A stretch of 64,000 bases of DNA from Chamaesiphon sp. (GCA_965246715.1 CBDFFH010000009.1:95239-159238), one strand, 5' to 3'. Shown: positions 24,191 through 43,200, numbered from the stretch's first letter. Program-made: numbers and translations. The notes: a model not told the origin generated them from the letters alone.

Positions 24191-24784
24191 CTATTTATAA
24201 AGATTGAAGTATTGTCCACAAACCAAGTATGCCGTACCTTTCACCTTAAAGTTTTTAGTGTATTGTTTTGCCTTTACATATATCTTTTCAAATGATGAAT
24301 ATTTCAACAACATATCTTCGCCACCGAAGTAAAGAACTACGATATCCTTAAATCCATTTGTTCGATCGGAAGTAACAATAAATCTACTAAAAGATAAGAA
24401 AGAGTCGATTAGTGAATATTGACTGCCGTTATGTTTTAAAATCTCAATCGGACAACCACCCATATCACATAAAAATGGAGAGGGAGATGAAAAGATTCTA
24501 AGTAATATCTCAGGTTGGCCATCTCCATCAAGATCGACTTTGTTATACGAGTATAAAACAGAACCTTTAGAATATAATATTCCTGAATGCTCTGTTCGGA
24601 TATATTGCTCGATTTTATTATCTCTAGAAGAAAAATTCTTAGCAACTTTTACTTCGCTGACATCAATCCCAGATCGAGTTGAAAGAGAGCATTCATCTTC
24701 ACTCCGAACAGAAGTGGTGGCAATAATCAAACAAATGATTGTTGATAGGATAGCTAACTTTTTTGCAACTTTAGGATATATCAT
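24191..24784 (-). CDS. Secreted hypothetical protein with DxDGDG motif
   Basis: Signal peptide; DLDGDGQPE, CDMGGC, TNGFKDI; AT-rich. Confidence 0.65.
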   Translation of the reverse strand: MIYPKVAKKLAILSTIICLIIATTSVRSEDECSLSTRSGIDVSEVKVAKNFSSRDNKIEQYIRTEHSGILYSKGSVLYSYNKVDLDGDGQPEILLRIFSSPSPFLCDMGGCPIEILKHNGSQYSLIDSFLSFSRFIVTSDRTNGFKDIVVLYFGGEDMLLKYSSFEKIYVKAKQYTKNFKVKGTAYLVCGQYFNLYK

Positions 24785-24848: not shown

Positions 24849-25784
24849 TCATGCAGTAAACTTGCGGACTATTTCTGACTCTCCCAGCCCTAATTCCACA
24901 GTGAATTCTTCACCAAGTTCTGCGGTAAAATTTAGCTGATTCCAATTGTCACCTGGTTTAGAAGTGACGGCGATCGATTCTCCCGATCGATCTGTGAGGG
25001 TTAACTTTACGCCAACGGGTAACTCTGTCTGTCCGACTGGATAAACTTGGATGAGAATATCTAACTCCAAGGGATTTTCGGTCGAGCAGAGATCGACAAC
25101 CAAAATTAGCGAGTTAACGCCTACTTGGAGCGCGAAATCAAACTTTTGACCCCGCTTGATACTGAGTCCGCTCCGACACAATCTCAGTTGCTCTGGACTT
25201 AATAAGCGATCGAGTGTTTCCCAGCCACTGTCGATCTGTCGCTCCAACCATTGCCCTAACTGGACGATGGGCGGACGTTCTAGGTTAGTTAAATATTCGA
25301 TCGAACTCTCTAGATCGACCAATTTAGTAAGTTCGATCGATCCAGTCTGTTGGCGACTAAAACCCAAGATCGTTGCTTCAGTTTCCGTCTCATTCAATCG
25401 CACGGGAAGATAGCCGATGCGCTCGCGTTCGGATTCGGGGGGAATAGTGCAGGTGGTAAGATTTGGAGCTACTGGAATACATTCTAATTTACCGATGCCT
25501 TCAACGATCAAGTCAGCAACATTGGTGAGTTTGACGAGTAATGGGTTGCGACTGTCGCTGTGCGGCCAATCCGTGGCAAATCCCAAACAGCGGAGGTAAT
25601 AATCGACAGCATACACGGCTAAAGCGTTGCGATAGACGAGATCGAATTTAGATCGATCGGTTATCCCTTGCGCCGATGTTTGGGCGAGTGCGTGGGCATC
25701 TTGGGGTAAGGTAACTGTAAAGGTAAGTAATTTACTATCGAGATCGTGCATTGCGAGAGCCTCTTGAAATAATCTGTTCGACAT
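24849..25784 (-). CDS. DUF1822 family protein (putative anti-sigma/protease substrate)
   Basis: YRNALAVYAVDYYL, ADL...GKLECIPV, RIGYLPV, EATILGF, LGQWL...GW; directly downstream of the sigma-like gene. Confidence 0.85.
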   Translation of the reverse strand: MSNRLFQEALAMHDLDSKLLTFTVTLPQDAHALAQTSAQGITDRSKFDLVYRNALAVYAVDYYLRCLGFATDWPHSDSRNPLLVKLTNVADLIVEGIGKLECIPVAPNLTTCTIPPESERERIGYLPVRLNETETEATILGFSRQQTGSIELTKLVDLESSIEYLTNLERPPIVQLGQWLERQIDSGWETLDRLLSPEQLRLCRSGLSIKRGQKFDFALQVGVNSLILVVDLCSTENPLELDILIQVYPVGQTELPVGVKLTLTDRSGESIAVTSKPGDNWNQLNFTAELGEEFTVELGLGESEIVRKFTA

Positions 25785-26324
25785 TCGAGCGATATTTAAT
25801 AATTTTAATCAGAGTTATTGACGCTCTAATCGGCTAGTAGTAAGTATAAATAATGAAAATAACCGCTACTGTAAATGATTCTGGAGATAGGGTAGATAAT
25901 TACGCAAATTGCGCTGATAAAAGCTCGATGCTGTCGGGATCGATGTGTTGAGGGCAGTAGCGATTTCTTGCCAACTTTTCCCGCCGCAGACCATTAATAG
26001 AATCGCTTGAAATGTAGCATCTGGTAGAGTTTGAATGTGCTCCTTGGCAAGTAATCCATCGGGGTCGTCGGTGATAAAATCGACTAGTAATTTGAGATCG
26101 TTATCCCCAGCCTCTGGTTGAGGGATCTCGCGCGTGCTAGTCGTCGCATCGTGGGAATTAACCGTTCGATCGGTTTCCTGCCATTGAATGCGGGCTTGCC
26201 TGGGGAGATTGGTGATGCCTCTTTTTTGATACTTTTGATAGACATCTTGAAACCGAAAATTAAAGATATTATTTACCCAGGCCATTACCGAATATTGGGG
26301 GTTGTAAGTAGCGATTTTGCGACA

Positions 26325-27812
26325 CAGGGTGAACGCATCAAAACAGGATTTATTTCGATCGAGAGCCACTAAAATAGGCGATTAATGATATTCGATTGCT
26401 TAACTACAATTACGACAATATCAATAAAATCGAAACCAAAGACGAGGTTAAATTAACTCAATTTAGTCCGGCAAAAGTGCGGCTAAAGATATTTAGCCAA
26501 ATTCATACTCTGGGGTTAGTTAAATTTAGGCTAAAATAGCCTCTAGAAGTTCGCGCGAATATTCTTCATCAAGGCTCGCAAGAAATCGCTTCTTCCTAAC
26601 ACTTAGTTTTCGACTCTTGTTCTGACTCATTATATTAACTGCTATATGTCTTAAAACAGCAAAATTAGCTGGAGCATTATCTTTTCTAATTCGACTAATG
26701 TCTTCTTTGAAAATAACATCAAGTACCCAATGGAGTGAATTTTCTATCGACCAATGACCTCTGATTGCTTCTGCTAGTTTTTCAACATTATCTTCTAAGC
26801 TACTGATGAAATAACGAGCTTCTACGCTGGTTTTTTCATTGACAACTCGAACTGATTCTACCATGCAAATACTAGTCAGATTTTGCCATTTTAGCAATGG
26901 ATCTATTGATGTTGCAATGTCTGATATCATTAGGTAATTACGAGTTTCCTCTCTACCTCTATTCATCTCTCTACTGCTGAAGCTATGCGTTTTCAGACTT
27001 TCACCACGAGTTTTAATCGCCTGTTTGAATAGCTGTTCTACCCTTTCATATAAACTTGGTTGATTCTTTTTGACAGCAATTACATAATCTGCTTCTTTTT
27101 TGACAATTTTCTTGACTATTTCTCGCTGACATCCCATTGCATCAATTGTCACTATACATCCAGCTAGATCTAAGGCATTAATCAACTCAGGCAATGCAGT
27201 AATTTCATTTGATTTACTCTCGACTTTTGTTTGTCCTAATACTAATCTATTACTTGCTGCCCAAGCACTGACCGTATTAATTACTCCTTTACCATTTTTT
27301 TCGTCTCTTGAATTTCGAGATTGTTTTCCATCAAATGCGATTATCTCTCCTGCTGTTATTTTACTTATTCCTTTAATCCAATGCAGGAAAGATTTATTGA
27401 ATTCTTCAGGATTAATTTGTGAAAATACCCGTGCAAATGTATCGTGAGATGGTATCCCATTCGGTAATTCTAGAAATTCCTCCAGCCATTTTTTTCTGGT
27501 GATGCCATACAGCTCTATGTCTTCCCATCCATCTGCTCCACATACTACTGCACAAATCGAGATCGTGATAATATCGATTAGTTTGTGTTTTTTCCCCCGT
27601 TCAATTCTAATGTCTTTTATGTCACCAAAGTGTTCTGCGATACTATGCCTTGGCTTTAGCTTCATTTGACGCGATCTGAATTTCCAATAAATATAACATA
27701 ATTAACTGGCTATACTTGTTTACCATTAAAGCTTTCATACTTTTCGTAATTCAAATCTGCAACTGATTTGCGAGGATTTTAAATAGTAGGAAATTTAAGT
27801 GCGTTCACCCTG
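26325..27812 (-). mobile_element. ISAs1-family insertion sequence
   Basis: TIR CAGGGTGAACGCA at both ends; 10-bp TSD TTTTGCGACA (26315-26324, 27813-27822). Confidence 0.95.
26526..27665 (-). CDS. ISAs1 transposase
   Basis: GIPSHDTF, DGK, KSNEITA, TIDAMGCQ, HWSIENSLHWVLDV. Confidence 0.96.
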   Translation of the reverse strand: MKLKPRHSIAEHFGDIKDIRIERGKKHKLIDIITISICAVVCGADGWEDIELYGITRKKWLEEFLELPNGIPSHDTFARVFSQINPEEFNKSFLHWIKGISKITAGEIIAFDGKQSRNSRDEKNGKGVINTVSAWAASNRLVLGQTKVESKSNEITALPELINALDLAGCIVTIDAMGCQREIVKKIVKKEADYVIAVKKNQPSLYERVEQLFKQAIKTRGESLKTHSFSSREMNRGREETRNYLMISDIATSIDPLLKWQNLTSICMVESVRVVNEKTSVEARYFISSLEDNVEKLAEAIRGHWSIENSLHWVLDVIFKEDISRIRKDNAPANFAVLRHIAVNIMSQNKSRKLSVRKKRFLASLDEEYSRELLEAILA

Positions 27813-28019
27813 TTTTGCGACAGATTTCCAGCAGCGTCTCGTTGAGAGCTTCATCATAAATATCTTGAAAATTGGGAATGTTCGACCAGTTACGTTGTCT
27901 GGCGATACTGTCAGATTGACGAATGGCACTCATTAATTTTGATAAAGCAATCCGCCGTTGCGAACTGCGATCGGGAGCTGTTTGGGCTTGTGCTACTAGT
28001 TGGCGTAATTCATCCATAT

Positions 28020-28487
28020 TTAACATCTCGCGCTTAACTGATGTAACATCGGGCCGACTTGTTGCATCGAGCCACTAGTAGCGTAATTTCTGCCTAAAAT
28101 CGCCATGTTGGGGGTGGAGTCAAAGGCTTGTTTGAGTTTAAAAATCTCTGTGGTGGTATAGATTGTCTCATCGGTCGCGATCGAGTATGCACCATAAGTA
28201 AGTTCGATTTTCCAGCGATCGTAACCTTGATGTCGATATCCCAAGCCGATCGTCCGCTCGATCGGAATCGATAACGCTCGAAAGTTCTGGAGTTGTTTTT
28301 GTTCGATCTTCGGGATCCGTTCGGCTACTACTTGTTGCAACTTTGGGGAGATAACGACCTTGCCAGTTTGAATCTCGATCGTTTTAGTCTGTGCGGGTTG
28401 TTGGACGTAGGCAACAATTGCTAAATCGGGGCGGGTCAATCGATTGCAGAAGGTAAAATGCTCGATCGGTAAGATGGTTGCTAACAT
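28020..28487 (-). CDS. Hypothetical protein, first gene of the sigma-DUF1822 operon
   Basis: 155 aa; stop overlaps the sigma start region. Confidence 0.55.
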   Translation of the reverse strand: MLATILPIEHFTFCNRLTRPDLAIVAYVQQPAQTKTIEIQTGKVVISPKLQQVVAERIPKIEQKQLQNFRALSIPIERTIGLGYRHQGYDRWKIELTYGAYSIATDETIYTTTEIFKLKQAFDSTPNMAILGRNYATSGSMQQVGPMLHQLSARC

Positions 28488-28517
28488 AAATTTTCAATAC
28501 AGCAGTCGATATTACTA

Positions 28518-28545
28518 ATTCATGTCAGACTCAAGCTTTTTATGC
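28518..28545 (-). promoter_or_regulatory. Putative alternative-sigma promoter GCATAAAA-N16-GAAT (sigma operon)
   Basis: GCATAAAA AGCTTGAGTCTGACAT GAAT, 30 bp upstream of the ATG at 28487. Confidence 0.7.
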
Positions 28546-28685
28546 GTCAGCAGCTCGAAAATCTCGATCGATCTCATTATTCATAGCTTTGTAACAAGGG
28601 TTATTTATATTAAAGGGTACGAGGAAAACGAGTCATACAAATAGCAACTTGGAATATCGATTTGGTAGTTAGCGATCGATCGAAT

Positions 28686-29498
28686 CTAGAATTCACATAC
28701 AGATGCTTTAACTGGATAAACTTTCGCACTAATTTGATTTGAATCGAGAGTGAGATCTGTCAATTTAGTCAACCCAGACAATGGCTTGACATCACCGATC
28801 TGATTTGATATGAGGATGAGAGCTTTCAAGTTAGTCAACTTAGCTAATGGCTTAACATCACTAATTTTATTTGAATCGAGGAAGAGAGCTTTCAAGTTAG
28901 TCAACCCAGCTAATGACTTGACATCACTAATTTTATTTGAACTGAGGTGGAGATAGACTAAGTTAGTCAACCCAGCTAATGGCTTGATATCACCGATTTG
29001 ATTTGAACTGAGGGCGAGTTCGGTCAAGTTGGTCAAACTAGCTAATAGCTTGCTATCACTGATTCGATTCTCGCTGAGGTCGAGATAGGTTAACTTAGTC
29101 AACCCAGCTAATGGCTTGACATCACCGATTTGATTTGAACTGAGGTCGAGTTCGGTCAAGTTGGTCAACCTAGCTAATAGCTTGATATCACCGATTCGAT
29201 TCTCGCTGAGGTCGAGATAGGTTAACTTAGTCAATCCAGCTAATGGCTTGATATGACTGATTTGATTCGATCTGAGGTCGAGTTTGTTAAGACTTCTAAG
29301 TTTAGAGTCGGCTGCTTGACAATTGTTAGTACCAGCTTTTTTCAATAAAACATCGATCGTGTGTCTGGTTGCCGCAGGGACAGATGATTTCTGTTGACAC
29401 CACTGAGCAAAGCTTTTCGTTTGTGCGGAAGCTGTTGAGACAAGTGTAGCTTGGACTAGAAGTGTTAATCCGATCGCAAGGAAGAAGAGTTTTTTCAT
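28686..29498 (-). CDS. Secreted internalin-like leucine-rich repeat protein
   Basis: Signal peptide MKKLFFLAIG; FAQWC cap; 22-aa repeats LxxLxLSSNQIGDVKPLAGLTN. Confidence 0.92.
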   Translation of the reverse strand: MKKLFFLAIGLTLLVQATLVSTASAQTKSFAQWCQQKSSVPAATRHTIDVLLKKAGTNNCQAADSKLRSLNKLDLRSNQISHIKPLAGLTKLTYLDLSENRIGDIKLLARLTNLTELDLSSNQIGDVKPLAGLTKLTYLDLSENRISDSKLLASLTNLTELALSSNQIGDIKPLAGLTNLVYLHLSSNKISDVKSLAGLTNLKALFLDSNKISDVKPLAKLTNLKALILISNQIGDVKPLSGLTKLTDLTLDSNQISAKVYPVKASVCEF

Positions 29499-29550
29499 GA
29501 GTTGGGGAATTGGATAAATTAGCAATATTTGGTGGTTCAAAAAAAGCCAG

Positions 29551-29584
29551 GGCATAATTCGGTGATTTCCGCCGAATTATGCCC
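29551..29584. terminator. Hairpin between the Cys-rich gene and the LRR gene
   Basis: GGGCATAATTCGG...CCGAATTATGCCC; T-run shortly after it on the minus strand. Confidence 0.55.
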
Positions 29585-29642
29585 TCAAGACATTAGATTT
29601 AGCTTCAGAACCAGCTATTTTTAATTACACTATCAATGACTG

Positions 29643-30158
29643 CTATTGAGGCGGGGGCATCTTATATTCCGACTTTGGCGTGTAATAACTCATATTGCAG
29701 AACCACTTGCCAAAAGTATCTTGCACGCAGACACCAACGCTCTCAGGTACGCGCGAAACCGTGCAGTTGCCTCCTGCTGGATGTACGCCGCTAATGGTAT
29801 AACAGAGGTAGTGAACTACACTACCTTGGAGATCGTATGCAGGCTTGGCTGTATCGATATTGTTAAAAATTCGGAAATCATTGCTACGAACCTGGCGCGG
29901 TTTGGAAACTTGCAAGTTGAGGATGTCCATGAATTGTGTTGAGTAATTGCGTTGGTATCCACCACTTTCTCGATCGCAAGCAGCATAGATCGCTGCTTGT
30001 CTAGCACCGATCGCACCGCTTGTTGGTGCCATTCTCGATCCACAAGCCCGAGACTGGCGGTTGGTACCGATATTACGAGATTGAGCGGTGACGAGGCAGG
30101 GACTTAGTAGTGTCAGCAGCGCACAGCCGACGATCGCGAGCGTGATTCTTGATTTCAT
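29643..30158 (-). CDS. Secreted Cys-rich hypothetical protein, paralog 2
   Basis: Signal peptide; six conserved Cys in the mature part; close paralog of 30304-30822. Confidence 0.8.
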   Translation of the reverse strand: MKSRITLAIVGCALLTLLSPCLVTAQSRNIGTNRQSRACGSRMAPTSGAIGARQAAIYAACDRESGGYQRNYSTQFMDILNLQVSKPRQVRSNDFRIFNNIDTAKPAYDLQGSVVHYLCYTISGVHPAGGNCTVSRVPESVGVCVQDTFGKWFCNMSYYTPKSEYKMPPPQ

Positions 30159-30303
30159 ATTGAGTTTAGATGTGGATTGGACGAGAGTAGATTAGGCTTC
30201 GTAACCTAAATGAACTTTTACAGATTTTTAGATAGTCGGATCTTAAAATCGGCTATTTTTACTAAAAACTAGAGTTGGCTAAATTATCCGTAATCTATGA
30301 TTG

Positions 30304-30822
30304 CTATTGAGGCGGTGGCATGTGATAGTCCGGCGTTGATGATAACGTGCTCATAGCGCAGAACCATTTGCCAAAAGTATCTTGCACGCACGTACCAATG
30401 CTTTCAGGTACGCGCGAAATCGTGCAGTTCTGTCCTGCTTTATGCACATTGTCATCAATGTTATAACAGCGGTATTGAACTACGCTGCCTTGGAGATCGT
30501 ATACAGGCTTGGTTGTATCGATATTGGTGAAACTTCGGAAATCGTTACTATTAACCTGACGCGGTTTTGCAACTTGCAGACTGAGGATATCAATAAAGAG
30601 TGTTTCGTAATTTGCGTGGTATCCATCACTTTCTGTATGACAAGCAGCATAAATTGCGGCCTGTCTAGCACTTATGGCACCTCGTGTTGGTGCCGTTCTC
30701 GATGGACAAGTCCGAGGTTGGCGGTTGGTACCAATGTTGCGAGCTTGAGCGGTGAGGATGTAGGGATTTAGTAGTGTCAGCAGTGCACAGCCGACGATCG
30801 CGAGCGTGAGTCTTAATTTCAT
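30304..30822 (-). CDS. Secreted Cys-rich hypothetical protein, paralog 1
   Basis: Shares MK.R.TLAIVGCALL, YDLQGSVV and CVQDTFGKWFC with its neighbour. Confidence 0.8.
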   Translation of the reverse strand: MKLRLTLAIVGCALLTLLNPYILTAQARNIGTNRQPRTCPSRTAPTRGAISARQAAIYAACHTESDGYHANYETLFIDILSLQVAKPRQVNSNDFRSFTNIDTTKPVYDLQGSVVQYRCYNIDDNVHKAGQNCTISRVPESIGTCVQDTFGKWFCAMSTLSSTPDYHMPPPQ

Positions 30823-30942
30823 ATCTTGGATGCTTTATAGAGTTTGCGTAAATGCCAAACAGTGGCAATGGAATCAACGATACTAAGATCGATCGTTGGT
30901 AGAGATGCTTAAAATAAGCGATCGATTATCTCTATACGATCG

Positions 30943-30970
30943 ATTCATGCAAGCGTATTGCTGTTTATGC
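30943..30970 (-). promoter_or_regulatory. Putative alternative-sigma promoter GCATAAAC-N16-GAAT
   Basis: GCATAAAC AGCAATACGCTTGCAT GAAT upstream of 30822. Confidence 0.65.
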
Positions 30971-31012
30971 GATGGGTGAAGATTATTAATATTTCTTAAT
31001 AGTTATTGGAAT

Positions 31013-33823
31013 TTAGGGATTATTATTTCTGATTACTAATGCTTTAATTTTGGGATCGTTCATTAACTTTTGAGTATCAGCGAGCAATCGATCGCCCCAA
31101 TTTTGTTCTTTGAGCGATTGAATATTTATATCACGAGAGACTGAGAGCGCACGCTCGGCATTAGCATAAGCTTGAGTTTTTTTTCCTTGGGCGAATAGCG
31201 CAACAGCAAGGGCTAATAGCTCTGAATTTCTGAGCACCTCGTTGCCCCACACGATCGACTGTTGCCAATCTTTTATGGCTTTATCGCGATCGCCCATTTC
31301 ATAGTAAATATGCCCCCGATTGATATAAGCCTCGTCAAATCGGTCTTGAAGTGCGATCGCCTTTGTATAGTCAATTAGGGCTTGCGAGTACTGTTTTTGG
31401 AGGCGGTAGATATTTCCCCTATCGAAGTAATGACTGGCAGTTTTGGGGTCGAGTCGGATTACTTTTGTATAGTCAATTTGTGTTTGTGAGTATTGTTTTT
31501 GCAGGCTATAGAAATAGCCTCGACTATGGTAGGCATCGACATTTTGGGGATCGAGTTGAAGTGCTTTGGCATAGTCAGCTAATACTTGTGAATCTTGTTG
31601 GTTATTTTTGGTATAGCTAGAGCCAAGTTGCCGTTGCTGTAATTCTATATGCATACGGTAAAAATTACCTCGATTGATGTATGTATCTGCATTTTGAGGT
31701 TCGAGTTCGATCGCTTTGTTGAGGTCAGCTAATGCTTGCGGAAATTGTTGTTGGTTGCGATAGATATTGCCCCGATTGATATAGGCATCTGCATTTTGGG
31801 GATCGACTTGGATCGCTTTGTTAAAGTCGGCTAGTGCTTCTGGGTATTGATTATAACGATCTCGGTAGAAAATCCCCCGCTGGATGTAGGCATCGGCGTT
31901 TTGAGGATCGATTTGAATAGCTTTCTTGAGATCGTCAATATCGCCAAGAAATAACGCACGACTGATGTAAGCATCGGCATTTTGGGGATCGATTTGAATC
32001 GCTTTATCAAAGTCAGCTCGTGCTTGCAAGTATTTGTTTTGTAAGCTATGGATATTCCCGCGATTTATATAAGCATATGTATCTTGAGAATCGATTTGGA
32101 TCGCTTTATTAAAATCGGTTAGTGCTCGTGAATATTGTTTTTGTAATTGGTACAGTTGACCACGATTGATATAAGCACGTGTATTTTGAGGATCGAGTTG
32201 AATTGCTTTATTAAAATCGGTTAGTGCTTGTGGATATTTTTTTTGTAGGCGATAGAGATTTCCTCGCTGATTGTAGGCAGAGATATTTTGCAGATCGAGT
32301 TGGATTGCTTTATTAAAGTCTGCTAATGCTTGTGGATAGTACTTTTGTAAACTGTATAATTCGCCGCGATTGATGTAAACAGATATATCTTGAGGATCGA
32401 GTTGGATTACTTTATTAAAGTCTGCTAGTGCTTGTGGATATTGTTTTTGTAGGCCGTAGATATGCCCTCGCTGGTTGTAAGCAATAGTATTGTTAGGTCT
32501 ATCTTTAATAAATCGATCGGTTGCGACGATCGCTTCTGAATACCGTTTGAGATGTTGTAAAATTATCCCTTTTATCATGTACAGCGAGCTATTATTCGGC
32601 TTTAACTCGATCGCTACTTCTATCGCCTTCAAGGCCTCAATATTTCGGTTTAAGCCTCCTAGATACCCAGCTAGACTACGCCATGCAGGCATAAATGTAT
32701 GATCGACCTTAGTAGCTTGTTGAAAGGCAATCACAGCTAGCTGCTCTTGTTTAGATTGCCTATACCCAAGCACTAACCCCCGACCATAATAGGCAAGTTT
32801 GAGTTGGTCTCGATCGGGTGTAGGGGTAGATTTTAATAATCCGATCGCGCGATCGAATGCGGCAACTGATTCCTGAGTTTTATCACTCCGCCATAAGAGA
32901 TTGCCATAATCTAACCATTCCCTAGCCGTCGCAGTTCGACTCGGAGAAGATAGCGTTGCTAATAGATTCTGTTTGATTTCCGCTGTCTGTGCTGAAGTTA
33001 TTGCTAGTGTTGGAGTTAAATCGCTTGGCAATGACGGTAGTTCTGTTTTCACCACTCTCAGTAGAGTAGAAATCGGCACGCCTAGAGCATGACCAGAATT
33101 AATTTCCGTGTATCGACCTCCATCGATTATTTCAGCTTCATTTTCTGCCGCAGTATTAATCCCTACCAGCCTTCCCTGTGTATCCAGTACAGCACCACCA
33201 CTCATCCCTGGCAATGAGAGATTCGTATATAACAAATCGTATCCTCGATCGAGATTTGAGCTAAAGATAGCTCTGAAGTCATTCAAGTTGCGATCTGCGA
33301 AGGTACGACCGATGCTCAAATACCTTGTTTTACTGGGATCTCGTCCCGGAAATCCACTCACGAATACCCATTTATCCCGATTAAATCGATCGTTACCAAT
33401 TTTAGCGACTCGATAATTTTGGTGGGATTTAAATTTAACGATCGCTACATCCGTCCCTGGTTCGGGGACGATAATCTGCTTGACGGCAACTCGTTCTCTA
33501 GTTGGCGTAACGATCGAATACCCTTTTCCTGTAACTACATGCGCCGCAGTCGCCACGTAGTAAGTATTTCCCGTTCTGGCGATGATGACTCCCGAACCAT
33601 TGCCCTGACTATTTTCGATTCTCACCGTGATCTGTTGGGCGATATCATCTACCCGTTTGACAACTCCGGTGTAGTTATTTTTTCGCGCTAATTGCGGCGG
33701 AAAGGATCGCGATCGCGCATCGATTCGAGCTGGAGCTGTTGTGAGTAGGGCAAGTGACAAAGTTGGGTGATAGCCGATCGACAATAGCGATAAAAATGAG
33801 ATGAGAGCTAAATATTTTTTCAC
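31013..33823 (-). CDS. Secreted trypsin-like protease plus TPR array
   Basis: Start reassigned to GTG at 33823 (VKKYLALISF signal peptide); TAAH, DVA, GMSGG; many 34-aa TPRs. Confidence 0.88.
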   Translation of the reverse strand: MKKYLALISFLSLLSIGYHPTLSLALLTTAPARIDARSRSFPPQLARKNNYTGVVKRVDDIAQQITVRIENSQGNGSGVIIARTGNTYYVATAAHVVTGKGYSIVTPTRERVAVKQIIVPEPGTDVAIVKFKSHQNYRVAKIGNDRFNRDKWVFVSGFPGRDPSKTRYLSIGRTFADRNLNDFRAIFSSNLDRGYDLLYTNLSLPGMSGGAVLDTQGRLVGINTAAENEAEIIDGGRYTEINSGHALGVPISTLLRVVKTELPSLPSDLTPTLAITSAQTAEIKQNLLATLSSPSRTATAREWLDYGNLLWRSDKTQESVAAFDRAIGLLKSTPTPDRDQLKLAYYGRGLVLGYRQSKQEQLAVIAFQQATKVDHTFMPAWRSLAGYLGGLNRNIEALKAIEVAIELKPNNSSLYMIKGIILQHLKRYSEAIVATDRFIKDRPNNTIAYNQRGHIYGLQKQYPQALADFNKVIQLDPQDISVYINRGELYSLQKYYPQALADFNKAIQLDLQNISAYNQRGNLYRLQKKYPQALTDFNKAIQLDPQNTRAYINRGQLYQLQKQYSRALTDFNKAIQIDSQDTYAYINRGNIHSLQNKYLQARADFDKAIQIDPQNADAYISRALFLGDIDDLKKAIQIDPQNADAYIQRGIFYRDRYNQYPEALADFNKAIQVDPQNADAYINRGNIYRNQQQFPQALADLNKAIELEPQNADTYINRGNFYRMHIELQQRQLGSSYTKNNQQDSQVLADYAKALQLDPQNVDAYHSRGYFYSLQKQYSQTQIDYTKVIRLDPKTASHYFDRGNIYRLQKQYSQALIDYTKAIALQDRFDEAYINRGHIYYEMGDRDKAIKDWQQSIVWGNEVLRNSELLALAVALFAQGKKTQAYANAERALSVSRDINIQSLKEQNWGDRLLADTQKLMNDPKIKALVIRNNNP

Positions 33824-33856
33824 GATCGATGGAGCTAATTTTATTTGAGTAATATA

Positions 33857-34107
33857 ACGTGAGTTCGGGATAAGGATCTTTGCTTCGTTCCAGCACCGCC
33901 TCCGATTGAAATCGGGGCTAGCATTACAAAGTCCGGTTGTTGCCGCGAGCGGCAAAAGCCTGCCTTCGCGGACTAAGATATCAGTCCGCGAAGCGAAAAG
34001 TGCGGTCTTGGGGTTTCCCCAAGTAGAGCACCTTTTCAAGACAGGCGGACTTTGCATCATGAGCCGAGACTTCTAGTCTCTAGGCAATTATTATCCCGAA
34101 CTGACGT
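33857..34107. mobile_element. MITE with IS982-type ends carrying a family-C REPIN
   Basis: TIRs ACGTGAGTTCGGGATAA / TTATCCCGAACTGACGT; 7-bp TSD TAATATA (33850-33856, 34108-34114). Confidence 0.85.
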
Positions 34108-34189
34108 TAATATAGAAATACGGCGATCGATTGGTTAAGCATTACTAAGAATCGATCGATCGATAAGTACGATCTATTTCCAATAAAAT

Positions 34190-37100
34190 TTAGCGATTAC
34201 TTCTACTCATAAATGCCTTCATGTTTGGAGTAGCCATCAACTTCTGAGTATCGGCAAGCAGTTTTTCGCCCCAATTTTGTTCTTTAAGATATTCAATTTT
34301 GGCAAAATTCCGATCTAACCCAATCGCGCCTTCAGCAGCAACATATGCCTGAGCCTGTTGACCTTGAGTGAATAAAGCAACGGCAAGAGCTAACTTTGAT
34401 TCGGCAAATTTAGAGTCGATTGAGATCGACTGCTGCCAATCTTGGATTGCTTTATTTGGTTCGCCCATCTCATAATATATGAGTCCCCGATTATTGTGTG
34501 CGAATAAATTTTGACGATCGAGTTGAATTGCCTTATTGTAGTCAGCTAATGCTTGGGGATATTGTTTTTGGCTTTGATAGACGATTCCTCGATTGCTGTA
34601 AGCATTTGCATTTTGAGGGCTAATTTGAATGACTTTGCTGTAATCGGCTAGTGCCTGGGGATATTGTTTTTGGATAGCATAGATATCGCCCCTGCTGTTG
34701 TAAGCATCTACATTTTGAGGGTTAATTTGAATGACTTTGCTAAAATCAGCTAGTGCCTGGGGATATTGTTTTTGGATAAAGTAGGTAAGTCCTCGAAGAG
34801 AGTAGATTTCTGCATTTTGAGGGTCGAGTTGAATTACCTTGCTAAAATCAGCTAGTGCTTGAGGATATTGTTTTTGCATACTGTAGAAAGTTCCACGAGT
34901 GATGTAGGCTTTTACAGACTTAGGATCGACTTGGATCGCTTTGCTAAAATCGGCTACTGCTTGAGGATATCGTTCTTGCTGAAAATACGTATCTCCCCGA
35001 TAGATGTAAACATTCATATTTTGAGGATCGAGCTGAATCACTTTATTAAAATCCGCTTGTGCCTGTGGATACTGTTTTTGTTCGCGGTACAGATTTCCCC
35101 GATCGCTATAGGCTTTTACAGACTTAGGATTGACTTGGATCGCTTTGTTAAAGTCAGCTAGTGCCTGTGAATACTGTTTTTGGGCAGCATACATACGTCC
35201 CCGATAAATGTATGCACTTACGTTTTGAGGGTCGAGTTGGATCGCTTTGCTATAGTCCGATCGTGCCTGTACATACTGTTTTTGTTCGCTGTACACACTT
35301 CCCCGATCGATGTAAGCCAGTACAGACTTAGGATCGAGTTGGATCGCTTTGTTAAAGTCAGCTAGTGCCTGTGAATACTGTTTTTGGGCAGCATATGTAT
35401 CTCCTCGATCGATATATGCACTTACCTTTTGAGGATCGAGTTGAATCACTTTGCTATAATCCGATCGTGCCTGTACATACTGTTTTTGGGTAGCATACAT
35501 ATCTCCTCGATTGTTATAAGCCTGCACATACTTAGGGTCGAGTTGAATCGCTCTACCATATTCAACTAACGCTTGGGGGTATTGTTTTTGGTTCTGATAG
35601 ACTAAGCCGCGATTATTGTAGGCAAATGCAAATTGAGGGTTAATTTGAATTGCTTTGTTATAGTCAGCTAGTGCCTGGGGATATTGTTCTTGGTCTAGGT
35701 ATACATTTCCCCGATCGTTATAGTTATTTTCGTTTTGAGGGTCGAGTTGAATCGCTTTACCATAATCAACTAACGCTTGGGGGTATTGTTGTTGGTTGCG
35801 GTAGGCAAGCCCCCGATTATAGTAAGCAAGTGCGAGTTGAGGGTCGAGTTGAATCGCTTTGTTAAAATCAGCTAACGCCTGGGGGTATTGTTTTTGGTTG
35901 CGGTAGATGACTCCCCGCGCGAGGTAGCCATATGGATTATTTGGTACGATCGCGATCCCACGATCGATCCAAGTCATCGCTTCGGAATAACGTTTAAGCT
36001 CTAAGAGCGTATATCCTTGCAGTAGGTATAAGGAGGCACTTGGAGGTTTTTTCAACTTAGACTGTAACTCGATCGCTTGCTGGAAGGCACTGACTGCCTC
36101 CGCTTTTCGATCTAGACTCGATAGAGTGAGGGCTAGATCTCGCCATGCAGGTATCGAGTCAGGAGAGATCTTCGTAGCTTGCTCCAGTGCGGTCAGTGCT
36201 AACTTAGTTTGTTTGCTGCCGCGTAAAGCCAATGACCGCCCATAATAGGCAAACCCTAACTGTTGTCGATTTGGGGTGGCATTGTCCTTGAGTAATTTGG
36301 CTGCGCGATCGAATGCGGCAATCGATTCATCACTCTTCCCGCTCCGCCATAACAGATTGCCATAGTCCAACCAGTCCTTAGCACTACTTTTTTGACTGGG
36401 AGTAGCTAGTGCTGCTAATTGGATGCGGCTAATTTCTGCCTCTTCGAGCGTAGTCAGTGTAGGAGTCTGGACTAAATCCTCTTGCCATGATGGTAGTTGC
36501 GGTTTGAGGACTCGTCGCACTGTGGCAATCGGTACCCCAATCGCCAATCCCGTATTAATTTCTACTTGCTCTCCCTGTTCGCTAACATCACTGTCATTAT
36601 CGGCTCTGCCAGCAATCCCCACCAGTCTGCCTTGTGAATCCAGCACTGCACCGCCGCTCATCCCTGGCAATGACAGATTCGTGTATAACATCTCATATCC
36701 GCTGCTGAGAATTTCACGCTCTTTAACTACCACTTCGTTAAGATTTTTGTCGAGATTAGCCAGATTACCGATACTCAAATATCGTTGCTTGCTAGCATCT
36801 TTAGCTGGAAATCCACTCACGAATAACCGAATCCTAACACCTGCCCTGGATGGATCTTTCCCGATTTTGGCAAGCTGATAGTTTTGAGAGGATTGAAATT
36901 TAACGATCGCCACGTCCGTCTCTTTTTCGGGAATGATAATCTGTTGAGCGGTAACTCGTTCTTGCGTTGGCGTGATAATTGAATATCCTTGTCCATTCAC
37001 CACATGCGCCGCCGTTGCGACATAGTAAGTATTTCCCTGTCTGGCAATAATCACCCCCGAACCATTGCCTTGACTATTTTCGATTCTTACCGTTATCTGT

Positions 37101-37963
37101 TGGGCGATATCGTCAACTCTTTTGACAACACCTGTATAGTTAGTTTTTTTAGCAACCGTCGTTGGCGATGACGGGCTAGATTCGGCTGAAGATTTGGGTA
37201 AAAAAGCTTGATATTGTGAATTAATCTGCGCTAGTGTCGCGATCGGAATGGCAAAACTCGACTTTCGCAGTTGTTGGATGAGGGCTGCTTCTGGGCGACT
37301 ACCGTCTTGATATTGGTAAACTTGGTTGCGAATCGGTTCGGAGCCAAACCCGATAATCCCCAGTAGTTGTCCTTGAGTATTCAATAATGGCCCACCACTC
37401 ATCCCTTGCGCGGTACTAATCCCAAAGCCAATCCGATATCCCCCTTGGAGTGGTTTGGCTGTCAGTAGGGAAATCGTCGATCGATCGATTTTCAGTTGTT
37501 GCTGCTCGAAGGGGAAACCCGCACTATACATCTGCTCGCCTGGTTGGAGTCGATCGCTATCGCCCCATTGGGGAATGGTGTAGCTCTGAGGGGCGGTAAA
37601 TTCTAATAACGCTAGATCGCGGTCTTTACTACCACAAGTGCCTTGAGTCAGCGTTTGGGCGCATTTGGCAGTATGAGTGCGTCCGTCGCTGGTGACGATG
37701 CGGTAGGTATTTGATTTATTGGCAACGTGAGCGTTAGTTAAGACTGTATATTTTTGACCCCGTTTGGCGATGAGTGTCCCCGAACCGCGCCGATCTCCAG
37801 CATAGACTTTAACGGTAATTTGACGCGCGATCGTCGCGGCTGAATCGGATTGTTTGGCGAAGGCTGGGGCTGATGAGGTGCCTAGCAGGGCGAGTGAAAT
37901 AGCTGTAGTTGTGATGCTGCCGATCGAGCATAAACACAGCAATAGAGTTAAAGATTTTTTCAT
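34190..37963 (-). CDS. Secreted tandem trypsin-like protease (two domains) plus TPR array
   Basis: Signal peptide; TNAH/DLA/GMSGGP and TAAH/DVA/GMSGGA; long TPR array. Confidence 0.92.
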   Translation of the reverse strand: MKKSLTLLLCLCSIGSITTTAISLALLGTSSAPAFAKQSDSAATIARQITVKVYAGDRRGSGTLIAKRGQKYTVLTNAHVANKSNTYRIVTSDGRTHTAKCAQTLTQGTCGSKDRDLALLEFTAPQSYTIPQWGDSDRLQPGEQMYSAGFPFEQQQLKIDRSTISLLTAKPLQGGYRIGFGISTAQGMSGGPLLNTQGQLLGIIGFGSEPIRNQVYQYQDGSRPEAALIQQLRKSSFAIPIATLAQINSQYQAFLPKSSAESSPSSPTTVAKKTNYTGVVKRVDDIAQQITVRIENSQGNGSGVIIARQGNTYYVATAAHVVNGQGYSIITPTQERVTAQQIIIPEKETDVAIVKFQSSQNYQLAKIGKDPSRAGVRIRLFVSGFPAKDASKQRYLSIGNLANLDKNLNEVVVKEREILSSGYEMLYTNLSLPGMSGGAVLDSQGRLVGIAGRADNDSDVSEQGEQVEINTGLAIGVPIATVRRVLKPQLPSWQEDLVQTPTLTTLEEAEISRIQLAALATPSQKSSAKDWLDYGNLLWRSGKSDESIAAFDRAAKLLKDNATPNRQQLGFAYYGRSLALRGSKQTKLALTALEQATKISPDSIPAWRDLALTLSSLDRKAEAVSAFQQAIELQSKLKKPPSASLYLLQGYTLLELKRYSEAMTWIDRGIAIVPNNPYGYLARGVIYRNQKQYPQALADFNKAIQLDPQLALAYYNRGLAYRNQQQYPQALVDYGKAIQLDPQNENNYNDRGNVYLDQEQYPQALADYNKAIQINPQFAFAYNNRGLVYQNQKQYPQALVEYGRAIQLDPKYVQAYNNRGDMYATQKQYVQARSDYSKVIQLDPQKVSAYIDRGDTYAAQKQYSQALADFNKAIQLDPKSVLAYIDRGSVYSEQKQYVQARSDYSKAIQLDPQNVSAYIYRGRMYAAQKQYSQALADFNKAIQVNPKSVKAYSDRGNLYREQKQYPQAQADFNKVIQLDPQNMNVYIYRGDTYFQQERYPQAVADFSKAIQVDPKSVKAYITRGTFYSMQKQYPQALADFSKVIQLDPQNAEIYSLRGLTYFIQKQYPQALADFSKVIQINPQNVDAYNSRGDIYAIQKQYPQALADYSKVIQISPQNANAYSNRGIVYQSQKQYPQALADYNKAIQLDRQNLFAHNNRGLIYYEMGEPNKAIQDWQQSISIDSKFAESKLALAVALFTQGQQAQAYVAAEGAIGLDRNFAKIEYLKEQNWGEKLLADTQKLMATPNMKAFMSRSNR

Positions 37964-38083
37964 AAATAGAAATTAGTTTTGAGAGGGAAAAGGGGGAAGG
38001 AAAAAACTAACCTTTCCCCTAAAATCGTTATTTGCTAAATAAATGCTATGCGGACAAATGAATGATAGGTAAGCGATGTAAGT

Positions 38084-38656
38084 TTATTTAGTTTGAGGAG
38101 CAGTCTTTAAAATTGCCGCCATATCTATTTCTACATATACTTGTTGTTCTAAAGAACTATGCTGGATAGGACCAGTAATATAGTTTCCATTCAATGTATC
38201 TTTGAAATCTTGGAGAAATAATAATGGCTTATCACTAGATCGCAACGTCATCAATAGCTGTTTACAAGCACCATTAACTCGATCGGTCGCACAAATTACA
38301 TTGCTTCCGCTCATTTTGCCATTAGTAAGAAATAAGCGATCGGGATTTGCGGCATAAACTGATTGGATGCGCCCAGAAAATTCTTCACATCGTCGTTGTG
38401 GAGTCCAATTTTGATTGATTTGCTTAGTCCATTGAATTATGGCTTTTTTATCTGTACTCGTCCAATAGATGGTCGTTGGGACTCTTTTCTTTAACTGTTC
38501 GTTAAAGCTAGTACCGCAAGTAAATTTTCCAGCCTCAGCTTGAGCGAGAGCGGGTGAATTACTCGTGACTAGCAAGCCACCACTTAAAACAGTAGCAGCT
38601 AAAAATGCGCCATTAACTAGATACATAGAACGAACTAGCAGTGAGTTATTTTTCAC
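38084..38656 (-). CDS. COP23 domain protein
   Basis: FTC...VPTT, WTPQRRCEEFSGR, LTNG...VICA...C..LLMTL. Confidence 0.88.
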   Translation of the reverse strand: MKNNSLLVRSMYLVNGAFLAATVLSGGLLVTSNSPALAQAEAGKFTCGTSFNEQLKKRVPTTIYWTSTDKKAIIQWTKQINQNWTPQRRCEEFSGRIQSVYAANPDRLFLTNGKMSGSNVICATDRVNGACKQLLMTLRSSDKPLLFLQDFKDTLNGNYITGPIQHSSLEQQVYVEIDMAAILKTAPQTK

Positions 38657-38739
38657 GATATTTGAGTTTGTAGTAAATTGGATAACTTTAGTTGTAGCTT
38701 TGAGAGAATGCGATCGAAAAGATGCAGTCGATCGAGATC

Positions 38740-39936
38740 CTACTTGACCGTGGCAACAATCCGGTAGCGTCCGGTTTCCCCAGGTTGAAAGGTTTTGACG
38801 CGAACCATGTAGACTCCATTGCCAGGGAGCGATAGTGAAAGTTTAGCCGTATTATTACGACCGCGCACGCCTTTATTTTCACCAATTTTTTCAGGACTGG
38901 TATCTTCATTGGGGATATAATATAATTCCAAAGAAGGGTCGAGTTTTTCACCAACTATTTCAATATTTAATTTTTGATTGGCTCTTCCTTCAAAAAAGTA
39001 TTGCCGATAGTGGATATTTTTATCATCTACCCGATCGCCTGCCTGGAATACTCCAGAGATCGGTTTACCATTTATTTGCAATAATGTTATCTGTTCCGAT
39101 TTATTGGCATTATCGACGCTAGCAAAATCTGGCGATTTACGCTGATAAGCGGTTAAAAACGAGCGCAGGCGATCTCCAGAAATTGCAATACTGATACTCG
39201 TATTTGTCGGGCCGCCTTCAGTATTTCTGGCATAAATTGCCGTGTTAATACCGATGACTTGTCCTTGGGAATTAATTAGCGGGCCACCTGAGTTACCACT
39301 GTTAATGCGGGCATCATGATAGAGTAAACTTTGCGCTCGATCGATTTTATTGAGTACACCAGCAGTAAAAATATTATCGATGCCAAATGGCGAACCGATC
39401 GCGTAGACGCTTTGCCCGACTTTGAGAGAGTTTTGAGGGGCGAGAGCTAAGTATTTTAAGTTGCTTTGATTGGGGATTTTTATGAGGGCTAAATCTTCAT
39501 TTTGCGAAGCACCCAGGACATTAGCCTTGAGACTCGTACCGTCGGCGAGGGTGATTTGGACGGATGCAACCACTTTGTTGCGCTCATCGTGGACGACATG
39601 CTTATTGGTAACGATTAAGCCATCCTTGCTAATGATAAAGCCACTGCCGATCGTACTCCCCGAAACAATCTTGACTACGGCATCTTTACTGCGATCGAAC
39701 AGTTTGACGCGTACGGTTTCGTCAGTAGTTGTCGAGTTGACAGCGACAGTTCTCAGATCGGCGCGTTCTAGGTTGACTTTGCTAGCTACTGGGATTTTTT
39801 GCAGATCTAAGGTAGTTTGAATCGATCGATCTGCACGAATGCAGCTACAGGCAAGTTGCGTAAATCCAAATGCAGTAAATCCGACTAAAGGAAAGCCGAT
39901 CGCACAGATAATTTTAAGATTATTTTTTAGAGACAT
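38740..39936 (-). CDS. S1C trypsin-like protease with C-terminal PPC-like domain
   Basis: GSGFII, TNKH, DLA, AIGSPFG, GNSGGPL; C-terminal LDPSLEL...GRY. Confidence 0.9.
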   Translation of the reverse strand: MSLKNNLKIICAIGFPLVGFTAFGFTQLACSCIRADRSIQTTLDLQKIPVASKVNLERADLRTVAVNSTTTDETVRVKLFDRSKDAVVKIVSGSTIGSGFIISKDGLIVTNKHVVHDERNKVVASVQITLADGTSLKANVLGASQNEDLALIKIPNQSNLKYLALAPQNSLKVGQSVYAIGSPFGIDNIFTAGVLNKIDRAQSLLYHDARINSGNSGGPLINSQGQVIGINTAIYARNTEGGPTNTSISIAISGDRLRSFLTAYQRKSPDFASVDNANKSEQITLLQINGKPISGVFQAGDRVDDKNIHYRQYFFEGRANQKLNIEIVGEKLDPSLELYYIPNEDTSPEKIGENKGVRGRNNTAKLSLSLPGNGVYMVRVKTFQPGETGRYRIVATVK

Positions 39937-39994
39937 ATCGTTATCTTCATCTGAGTTTGGTTTATCGCTCGGATCGAGTGGTTGGCTGTAATTG

Positions 39995-40022
39995 ATTCTT
40001 ATTACACTAGGGTTTTTTATGC
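39995..40022 (-). promoter_or_regulatory. Putative alternative-sigma promoter GCATAAAA-N16-GAAT (protease/COP23 operon)
   Basis: GCATAAAA AACCCTAGTGTAATAA GAAT upstream of 39936. Confidence 0.7.
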
Positions 40023-40142
40023 AGCTCTAGAAAAAATTTACATTTAGTTACAGGGGAGGAGAAGGGGGAAAGGGGAAAGGGGAAAGGGGGATAATTGGAC
40101 TACACTCGAAGAGGATGCCAGCAGCAGGTATCCGTCCTAGCT

Positions 40143-40170
40143 GCATAAAATCGCCGACTAGCGACCGAAT
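40143..40170 (+). promoter_or_regulatory. Putative alternative-sigma promoter GCATAAAA-N16-GAAT (CHAT-STAND operon)
   Basis: GCATAAAA TCGCCGACTAGCGACC GAAT, 32 bp upstream of the GTG at 40203. Confidence 0.7.
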
Positions 40171-40202
40171 CAACTAGTAAGAACGCGCGGCAATACCCGA
40201 TC

Positions 40203-43200
40203 GTGAAGCAGCTACTCGTACTGAATTTAGATGGAGACTTTACCCGTGGATTTAGCGTCCACTGGGAAATCGGTAGCGAGGATCGAGCCGTTTGTCGCGA
40301 TGGTTATAGTAAATTGCGCCCGATGCCAGATTTAGACTTGGCATTTCGAGCGTGGGATCGGACTTATCGGAGTTTGGATGGCATCAATCGCATCAAAATC
40401 AAGCCCAACCAAATTACGAATGTCCGCTATTCGTCATTGCAGTTGGAGTGCGGACGACAAGCCAAAAACTTAGCTAGGGCGATCGATGATTGGTTCGAGC
40501 GATCGGATTTGAGCCGAGTCATTCGCGAACAGTTAATCCCTACCCCTGGCGACGAGTACCGGGCGATCGTCCGCACTACCGATTTCCAAGCACGACAACT
40601 CCCGTGGCATCTCTGGTCGGGATGGCGCGCGATCGATCGGCTAGAAATCGCTCTCAGCACGCCACAAGGCCTACGGCGAGACCGAATTTACCAGCAACAG
40701 GTACGGGTACTAGTCGTGCTCGGCAACAGTGAGGGCATCGACATCGAGGCCGATCGCCAACTTTTGGCAGATTATTGTCTGGGTGCCGATCTCACCGTAT
40801 TATCCGAGCCAACTCGATCGCAGTTGAGCGAGCGATTACTCGATAAACGCGGTTGGGATATCCTGTTTTTCTCAGGACACAGCAGCACCGAAGGGAATGG
40901 TACCAGGGGTAGAATTTGGCTCAATCGTACCGATAGTTTCACGATGGTCGAACTGAGACGAGAATTGCAAACCGCGATCGCTGGGGGATTGCAACTGGCC
41001 GTATTTAATTCATGCGACGGCTTGGGTGCCGCTGCGGAACTAGAGACGCTCTATATTCCCCACGCGATCTTCATGCGCCAACCAGTACCCGATCGCGTAG
41101 CTCAAACGTTCCTCAAAGATTTTTTAGCGGCATTTACTGGGGGGGCATCGCTAGCTCGATCGGTAAATATCGCCCGCGATCGACTTCAAGAATTAGAAAC
41201 AGAGTTTCCCTGTGCGAGTTGGCTGCCCGTACTCATCCAAAATCGGCTCGCTATCCCCCCAACTTGGCAAAGCTTGGGAGCGATCGCCAACTGTCCGTAT
41301 CGCGGTTTGGCAGCATTTGCCGAGGAGGATAAAGACTATTTTTATGGACGCGAAGAGTTTGTCGCTAGTTTGGTTGAAGACCTCAAAACCCGATCGCTAG
41401 TCCCGCTGATCGGTGCATCGGGAAGTGGTAAATCTTCGCTGGTATTTGCTGGGTTGATTCCCCAGTTGCGCCAAGACGATCTCCACTGGCAGATCGTTTG
41501 CTTGCGTCCGGGGACAGAGCCGATCGTGGCACTAGCAACTGCGGTGACATCGCTAGCAGCATCTCCCGCTCTGGCATTAGAGTTAGCACGATCGATCGCC
41601 ATCGACGAGCTGGCGGTAGTTAACTTCATGAGCGAATCTGGGCTGAATGGCAATTTAATCGAGTTGCACTCACCCAACGATCGCTTACTCTTAGTTATCG
41701 ATCGATTTGAGGAACTCTATACCCTAGCACCAGATAGAGCGGAACGTCGCCAATTTCTCGCTAATATTCTCAACTTGCTCGACCGATCGCCTGAAGTAAA
41801 GTTACTATTCGCCTTACGCGCTGATTTTTACGATCGCCTGCTGGAGGATTATCCACTGGTAATCGCCCTAGAACGGACGCAGAGCAGACATTTAACGCCA
41901 ATGACGCGCGCGGAACTAACTCAAGCGATCGTCATGCCAGCGCAGAAATTAAACGTCCGGTTTGAAGATGGCTTAGTCGAACGGATTGTGGATGCTACCC
42001 TGGGCGAGCGACATATCTTACCGCTGCTCGAATTTACCCTCACCCAATTATGGACGAAACAACGGGATGGCAATCTCACTCATCGCGGTTATGAGGAGAT
42101 CGGCGGGATCGATCGGGCGGTAGTCGATCGGGCGGAAGCAATTTATGCCCAGTTAACAGCTAGCGAGCAAACCCAGGCGCGCTCTATTTTCGGGCAACTG
42201 GTGCAAGTCGGCGAACAGACACTAGCTACCCGCCGGATGACTAAACGAGCGGAACTCGACCCCGACAGTTGGAGTTTAGTCGAGCATTTAGCCGCAGTAC
42301 GGCTAGTGACGATCGATCGCGCCGAAATTGCAGGTGATGAAACCGTCGAACTGATTCACGAGGCATTGATTGGCTACTGGGACAGACTGAAATTATGGAT
42401 CGAGATCGATGGCGATTTTCGACACTGGCAAGAACGATTGCGGGCGACGATCGATCGGTGGGATAAAAACGGGCGGGATGAGAGTGAGTTAATCCGAGGG
42501 AGAACGTTGGATACAGCTTTAGATTGGACGATAAAACAGCCCGATCGATTGCGGCGATCGGAAGCAGAATTTATCCAACTGAGTGCCACTCATCAGCAAC
42601 AGGAAATAACCGCCAAACAACGGCTCCAGCAGCGTATTATCGGTGGATTAGTCGCTGGATTGACGATCGCGACTACTTTGGCGAGTATCGCCCTGTGGCA
42701 ATGGCACCAAGCAAGCTTACAAAGACGCTCGGCTATTAGCAATCGCGTCGAATCGTTAGCCAGTAACGCGCGCTTATTATTCGAGTCTGGCAATCAATTG
42801 GCAGCTTTACAACAAGCTCGACTAGCTGCTGCGGAGATCGCGCGCGAACCTGAACTCACTAGTGAATTTAAGCTTCCCGCGCTCGCGACGCTCTCGGATA
42901 TCCTCGATCGCATTCAAGAACAGCGCGTGCTAGCGCGACATACCAATTCAGTCGCCAGCATTGCTTACAGTCGCGATGGTAAGTTCATAGTTTCGGCTGG
43001 CTGGGATAATCGAATTCATATTTGGACTGCTAACGGTCGATCGATCCAAACATTAGTTGGCGATAACGAACGGTTTTTCAAAGTCATCGTTCATCCCAAC
43101 AGTCACGAAATTATTACTGCTAGTTTCGAGCGCGGGGTTAAAATCTGGCATCGCCATCGGCAAACGGGACTCTGGATCGATCGATCTCAAGGCATCTTCG

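Follow-up and report, generated by a model that had tools for sequence, protein, structure and literature searches.

A two-box motif in a caspase-linked gene island of Chamaesiphon sp. as the probable promoter of the small ECF-like sigma factor encoded there

Results

Organisation of the island and distribution of the motif

The window analysed in this work is a stretch of 64,000 nucleotides from Chamaesiphon sp. (GCA_965246715.1, CBDFFH010000009.1:95239-159238; this genome is referred to as G000 and two relatives as G011 and G006, with L and C numbers for loci and contigs). It carries an island comprising a small sigma gene of the extracytoplasmic function (ECF)-like type, a DUF1822 gene, a gene for a CHAT caspase-like receptor and further cargo genes, before which the motif GCATAAA(A/C)-N16-GAAT occurs four times. 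On comparative evidence, we regard this motif as the -35 (GCATAAA) and -10 (GAAT) promoter of the island's own sigma, with a probability of roughly 0.8. Exact pattern matching confirmed both the positions and the strands of the four copies given in a preliminary description of this DNA. The first copy (28518..28545, minus strand; GCATAAA-N17-GAAT) heads the sigma group, with a predicted +1 near 28510. This group consists of ORF155 (28020..28487, minus strand; 155 aa, function not assigned, the first gene of the group in clade A of the sigma family described below), the sigma gene, the DUF1822 gene (24849..25784, minus strand; 311 aa, PF08852 E 2e-48), whose product is a candidate anti-sigma factor, and finally ORF197 (24191..24784, minus strand; 197 aa, hydrophobic N-terminus). 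The second, promoter-like copy (30943..30970, minus strand; predicted +1 near 30935) heads two paralogous signal-peptide proteins of 171/172 aa (29643..30822, minus strand; hydrophobic N-termini, no Pfam family) and a leucine-rich-repeat (LRR) protein (28686..29555, minus strand). The third (39995..40022, minus strand; predicted +1 near 39987) is likewise promoter-like and precedes a trypsin-like S1C protease with a PPC domain and a hydrophobic N-terminus (38740..39936), a COP23-domain protein (38084..38656; PF14218 E 4e-28), a double trypsin-domain TPR protein with its catalytic motifs present (34190..37963) and a trypsin-TPR protein (31013..34060, with a likelier start at 33823 according to the G011 ortholog), all on the minus strand. 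The fourth promoter-like copy (40143..40170, plus strand; predicted +1 near 40178) lies before the receptor gene (40203..44705, plus strand) and a TPR gene overlapping the CHAT stop codon (44702..45628, plus strand). We infer that the four copies head four transcription units covering the whole island; if these are indeed operons, no gene of the island (24191 to 45628) is without a copy upstream of it.

All four copies are intergenic and on the sense strand, about 31, 121, 59 and 33 nt before the open reading frame (ORF) starts at 28487, 30822, 39936 and 40203, in agreement with the 30-120 bp first estimated. Four exact copies in the window compare with a mean of 0.06 in 100 dinucleotide shuffles (largest 2), so that the motif is commoner than chance. 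The spacers and flanks of the copies are mutually unrelated, as first described. The 8th base is A in three of the four copies and in 97% of family promoters, so that the motif is better written GCATAAA-N17-GAAT than with a 16-nt spacer.

The genome-wide scan that had been suggested gave 10 matches to the strict pattern in 6.1 Mb, four of them within an 11.7-kb stretch of the island (binomial 3e-9, for a motif defined post hoc). Five further places were inspected and lie within or antisense to coding sequence, or in a repeat present twice. One strict match (C15:296513) recurs across the genus and was rejected, being antisense inside a coding gene. A looser N17 pattern gives 32 genome matches, about 21 of which represent one identical repeated element. 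This repeat, found at C2:216182 and about 20 other places, has a transposase-like ORF of 412 aa, and the GCATAAA-N17-GAAT lying 60 nt upstream of it is probably there by chance. With a relaxed pattern, N17 does not clearly stand out over the whole genome (37 sense sites in intergenic DNA vs 21-34 at other spacings); housekeeping genes are therefore without the motif, as the scan by eye had indicated. We conclude that the motif is genuine and specific to the island, to which the predicted regulon is likewise confined.

Two near-matches within the island were set aside. The "weaker variant" first noted near 38050 (38023-38051, minus strand) has an altered -35 box and an 18-nt spacer and is not counted as a copy. 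A lookalike, GCATAAT-N15-GAAT at 29552-29582, matches on both strands and was rejected as a palindrome. It lies just upstream of the LRR gene, is kept in G011 and could be a hairpin or an operator.

The receptor is a protein of 1500 aa with a CHAT caspase-like domain (His226, Cys271), an nSTAND1 NTPase, one predicted membrane helix at about 812-830 and WD40 propellers; about 115 residues precede the CHAT match. The two catalytic motifs are present in 84 and 83 of 86 relatives, respectively. Because the hydrophobic helix lies between STAND and WD40, the propellers are predicted to face outwards. Hydrophobic N-termini are also found on most cargo proteins. ORF155 had no match in Pfam, NCBIfam, PADLOC or Atlas, PADLOC returned only generic protease and repeat matches, and no CRISPR (clustered regularly interspaced short palindromic repeats) effector is annotated among the island genes.

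The sigma gene and its interruption

In this genome the sigma reading frame is split by an ISAs1-type insertion sequence of 1488 bp (26325..27812, minus strand; transposase 26526-27665), with terminal inverted repeats and a 10-bp target duplication. The 5' piece of the gene (27813..28026, minus strand) covers about 71 codons and ends at a stop just inside the element, while the 3' piece (25866..26324, minus strand) encodes the end of sigma2, the linker and sigma4 (Sigma70_r4_2 E 1e-5) and is 95% identical to an intact 220-aa ortholog in G011. G011 lacks the element at this position, and in three of four sequencing runs there are contigs that skip it exactly. About 20 full-length copies, 99.6-100% identical, are present in the genome, which indicates a recent expansion. 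With the sigma gene split, the four intact promoter copies of the window are probably orphaned and the regulatory loop is probably broken in G000. The only other member of the small-sigma family found in this genome is cut by a contig end on C27, beside a frameshifted CHAT gene; this second small-sigma module spans C27:205899-209860.

An AlphaFold model of the intact G011 ortholog (predicted local distance difference test score, pLDDT, 82) has a disordered linker at residues 115-140. When compared with sigma2 domains (SigW, SigC, sigmaE, CnrH), it gave Z scores of 8-9 with a root-mean-square deviation (rmsd) of 2.0-3.8 over 79-97 aligned residues (VIA-align); for sigma4 domains Z was about 6, and the top 20 rows were all sigma factors. 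The model thus suggests sigma2 and sigma4 only, joined by a short linker, which is the group 4 architecture. The best sequence matches in the PDB are the ECF sigmas SigH, SigE and SigK (E 0.005-0.06).

The DUF1822 protein was modelled with high confidence from L029:14413-15348 (pLDDT 91). Its N-domain resembles restriction nucleases (Z 8.8 to 2ost, a middling value, with rmsd 3.2 over 112 aligned residues), the C-domain is a beta-sandwich and no TPR repeats are seen; Foldseek gave no match at E<=0.001. Among the related loci, DUF1822 follows the sigma gene in 131 of 134.

Conservation of the motif among sigma relatives

With only the 3' piece of the sigma as query, an initial search for related loci gave no match. 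The set used here comprised 188 sigma ORFs, of which 6 short matches were dropped and the remaining 182 reduced to 146 at 95% identity. Enough upstream DNA was available for 143 of these, 119 had a -35 score >=9, and 99 (with G at N17) entered the -10 tables; clades A-E were taken from a quick tree. Named relatives are almost all cyanobacterial, the best-scoring named locus being from a Chamaesiphon genome, and a sample of 401 genomes of the phylum yielded modules of sigma, DUF1822 and caspase in 73.

The relative G011 retains all four copies; none of the 44 box bases and 6 of the 68 spacer bases differ. A second module of that genome, with a paralogous sigma, has CCATAAA-N17-GAAT twice, before ORF155 (with an unrelated spacer) and S1C. 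The G006 locus, whose sigma is 47% identical, carries two exact copies and one GCGTAAA-N17-GAAA with unrelated spacers, before ORF155, a trypsin-TPR gene and COP23. Across the family, GC[AG]TAAA occurs upstream of 96 of the 143 dereplicated sigma operons in sense and of 27 in antisense orientation (shuffle mean 7.9). The full pattern [GC]C[AG]TAAA-N17-G[AT] precedes 87 of the 143 (other spacers at most 35, antisense 15). It is also found before 35 of 78 cargo genes vs 5 of 333 other genes of the same loci in clades A-C, the three nearest (25 of 67 cargo genes without cluster c10, which was added after earlier results had been seen); within these clades it precedes 5 of 6 S1C genes and 18 of 46 CHAT genes.

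The -10 box of the sigma operon itself differs by clade, being GAAT in A, GTAN in B (20/20), GATA in C (36/36 scored loci) and GAGA in E1 (15/16). Within the family the -10 element is looser, and GAAT is the form it takes locally. Of 194 extra copies, 34 agree with the local -10, against 13.6 when permuted (maximum 26), and a G and a T are conserved at offsets 24 and 34 (0.82 and 0.81). The family element has the features of an ECF-type sigma promoter, namely two boxes at a fixed spacing of about 16-17 nt, in sense orientation before the sigma operon, with further copies before cargo genes in clades A-C. The comparison of sigma operons, cargo genes, sigma types and fold supports the autoregulated ECF-type -35/-10 promoter that was originally proposed, with the amendments that GAAT is not the general -10 sequence and that the sigma gene is interrupted in this genome.

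Several observations weigh against this reading. The sigma scores below curated cut-offs (TIGR02937 26.4 vs 42.9 bits; PF08281 20.9 vs 25.7), and Foldseek gave no match for it at E<=0.001. The -10 box is loose (clade C cargo genes have GATA 12, GTAA 6, GAAA 4, GAAC 4 and GAAT 1 times), and no clean residue-to-base code was seen between sigma and promoter. Clades D and E have no cargo enrichment (0/15 and 0/26 genes, with other genes at 20/364 in sense vs 14 in antisense), and trypsin-TPR genes mostly lack a copy of their own (1/12). Of 16 plasmid matches, 11 loci were examined, and only 5 of them have a good -35 box no more than 330 nt from the sigma gene; 4 of these 5 have G at N17. Where a good box is missing (6 loci), the sigma is in 5 cases preceded by a further gene in the same orientation. 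A good HLR1 (high light regulatory 1) box, treated in the next section, accompanies only one of the four window copies. The related loci are not independent, so that the counts overstate significance. The two motif strings were not found in the supplements of the start-site papers PMC3610870 and PMC4143802, and no named, start-site-mapped strain is among the 16 plasmid records.

A mutual-information analysis of sigma residues against promoter bases was discarded, as its highest-ranking columns were spread over positions away from the helices expected to make contact and were confounded by kinship. In the clade D/E loci (L039, L040, L042-L044 and others), the sigma-DUF1822-CHAT module is accompanied by DUF928, TPR-CHAT and filamentous-haemagglutinin-type genes, which had the motif in 0 of 26 cases.

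An HLR1-type box at a conserved distance from the predicted promoter

A direct repeat of the HLR1 (RpaB-type) kind lies at 40037..40054 (plus strand), with 2 mismatches in 16 positions, and ends 14 nt upstream of the third copy. It is at the distance and in the orientation conserved in the family, where 61 of 119 sigma promoters have an HLR1-like 18-mer (<=3 mismatches) in one and the same orientation, 13-16 nt before the -35 box. Other 5-nt windows gave 0-9, and permuted motifs at most 43 (mean 4.7). Two plasmid loci carry perfect HLR1 boxes at 16 nt. The consensus, in the passages of Riediger 2019 (PMC6525291), is a direct repeat of (G/T)TTACA(T/A)(T/A) separated by N2, and the same passages place the activating range of RpaB at -66 to -45. 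Since T, A and G are conserved at offsets 34-36, a +1 is suggested 35-36 nt after the first G of the motif. This would put the first G at -35 or -36 and the centre of the box near -59, in the activating range. The protein binding the box would be RpaB, as far as can be judged from the site, although another OmpR-type regulator may bind there instead. As in the RpaB/HLR1 regulon, the box is an 8+2+8 direct repeat that matches the consensus, here with a predicted centre near -59; the island box differs in being paired, in fixed orientation, with a predicted alternative-sigma promoter.

Larger paralogous sigmas and alternative explanations

Larger sigma-like genes with DUF1822, CHAT, COP23 and trypsin-TPR genes as neighbours are also present in the genome. 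Modules with sigma-like genes of 460-491 aa are found at L220-L224 (C20:195368-216725, C31:4539-19627, C44:12438-24356, C49:13755-19505). Cargo genes on C20 and C31 share GCATAWW-N13-CCCGA. In general form this sister motif is GCATAWW-N16-GA preceded by CC(C), with 5 copies in G000 and an occurrence in 8 of 24 large-sigma loci. Two sigma types with two spacings argue for local, cognate recognition. A HetZ-like paralog of 390 aa had no sequence match in the PDB.

The presence of these paralogs raises the question of whether the promoter is read also, or instead, in trans by another sigma, such as the sigma-like proteins of 390-590 aa encoded beside DUF1822, in which case the island could stay active. 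At least seven other DUF1822 genes in G000 have an upstream sigma-like or large unassigned gene, the large-sigma -35 box GCATAWW resembles that of the window, and the four copies are undecayed in spite of the broken sigma. However, the large-sigma sites differ from the window copies in their CC(C)GA and their spacing of 16 nt, and in BLASTP the large protein that was compared showed no significant similarity to the small sigma. As the insertion is recent, decay is not expected yet. We therefore hold reading in trans to be improbable. It is less probable still that the motif is an ordinary transcription-factor operator, or a housekeeping-sigma -10 element (TAAAAN) with conserved flanks. The much better conservation of the -35 box than of the -10 box would fit this explanation, as would the neighbouring HLR1 box, which indicates that global regulators have sites in these regions. 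On the other hand, the final T of the sigma70 -10 hexamer, which would have to be essential, is random (A37, G29, C27, T26), no sigma70-type consensus site is listed at the four copies (the region has 20, vs 26 when shuffled), and the large gene clusters of the loci include no other recurrent regulator gene. The motif is furthermore asymmetric and sense-oriented, with a fixed 17 nt.

That the copies are functionless relics of local duplication, or chance, is very hard to credit, even if the motif was picked out by eye and defined post hoc, in an island with many duplicated genes. The spacers and flanks of the copies are unrelated, the strand and spacer controls are low, and the persistence of the boxes beside divergent sigmas in many genera largely refutes this possibility. 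A promoter dedicated to the island's own sigma thus remains the preferred explanation; we consider the promoter real and very probably sigma-specific.

Discussion

Proposed regulation of the island

If the motif is the promoter of the island's sigma, the sigma would act with RNA polymerase, region 4 reading GCATAAA and region 2 reading GAAT, and transcription would start 35-36 nt after the first G. The sigma would then transcribe its own gene together with its DUF1822 partner, the CHAT receptor and the probably exported proteases, in a positive loop. RpaB at the HLR1 box centred near -59 may help to activate the third copy and about half of the family's sigma promoters. The signal could come from the WD40 sensor outside the membrane, which would activate the CHAT protease inside; the receptor may cut DUF1822 and so free the sigma, like HetF acting on PatU3 and HetZ. 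For this caspase gating, which is suggested by gene order and analogy, we see about even odds. More speculatively, the family may follow a promoter grammar in which the -35 box (GCRTAAAA) hardly varies, while the -10 box and the spacer change from one paralogous module to another and so keep the modules of a cell insulated. The phased RpaB site would form an AND gate of photosynthetic redox state and an extracytoplasmic signal passed on by the caspase-like receptor, and this genome would be a natural sigma-null strain with its promoters intact. Taken together, these propositions are tentative and, as a whole, rather doubtful.

Relation to known systems

Neighbourhoods of caspase, ECF sigma and DUF1822 genes have been predicted by Kaur et al. 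2021 (PMC8195603), and the island, with the sigma gene followed by DUF1822 and a CHAT gene nearby, has such a neighbourhood. In the passages of that paper on EACC2-caspase neighbourhoods, the shared features are a caspase/CHAT protein with a variable C-terminus, an adjacent ECF-like sigma with DUF1822, and a predicted transcriptional output; the C-terminus of the island receptor corresponds to STAND, membrane helix and WD40. Those passages contain no promoter, regulon or RpaB link, and they call DUF1822 a TPR protein.

A second parallel comes from Anabaena PCC 7120, where, in passages of PMC9457339 and PMC13342950, HetF cleaves PatU3, an inhibitor of the ECF-type sigma HetZ. As in the island, a membrane CHAT protease occurs with a divergent ECF-type sigma that is co-transcribed with its (here candidate) inhibitor. 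The proven HetZ promoter, TCCGGA-N16/17-TGNA-N7/9-T in the text of PMC13342950, resembles that of the island in having two boxes separated by 16-17 nt, with a G of key importance in the -10 box that is followed by a T after 7-9 nt. According to the same passages, HetZ differs in its -35 box (TCCGGA, compared with GCATAAA in the island), in three domain insertions and in a regulon of hundreds of promoters. The island sigma has 220 aa and a predicted island-only regulon of probably exported proteins. CRISPR-linked CHAT protease-sigma cascades likewise have a caspase-like protease encoded with a sigma and an inhibitor. The island differs from these in having no annotated CRISPR effector and in its predicted input, an extracytoplasmic WD40 sensor.

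ECF sigmas usually autoregulate, as stated in passages of Casas-Pastor 2021 (PMC7826278). The group 4 sigmas described there share with the island sigma2 and sigma4 domains, a promoter of their own before their own operon and a co-encoded candidate regulator, but the island sigma is below the ECF profile cut-offs, and the passages mention neither CHAT nor caspase. Those of PMC11119718 make no mention of HetZ or of this genus. No published promoter was found for the small-sigma family, although subscription journals or supplements (e.g. of PMC7826278) could hold one, and no experimental study of sigma-DUF1822-caspase modules was found in the literature. New in this work are the geometry shared across the family, the spacing specific to paralogs, the phased HLR1 box and the natural sigma-null allele. 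A defined promoter would allow a reporter assay for such modules, addressing the receptor trigger, DUF1822 as an anti-sigma cut by CHAT and the co-activation of an alternative sigma by RpaB, and the strain pair, with the sigma broken in G000 and intact in G011, offers a ready comparison.

Further observations

In one RNA run (X18), coverage extends over the sigma group, S1C-COP23 and the CHAT gene, with a gap at the bin 39988-40248 that a DNA contig of X6 bridges; this coverage stems from one study and assembled contigs only and was not used as evidence. Two Nostoc plasmids (L256:486-2145 and L258:477-2136) carry tandem sigma-70-family genes with no DUF1822 annotated adjacent. Finally, when the window at 28686-37963 is compared with G011 (L029-L030), the LRR and TPR repeat numbers differ and only one 171/172-aa paralog is present in G011. 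The trypsin-TPR genes of G011 are about 70-76% identical to those of the window, compared with about 95% for the flanks, which indicates that the cargo genes evolve fast.

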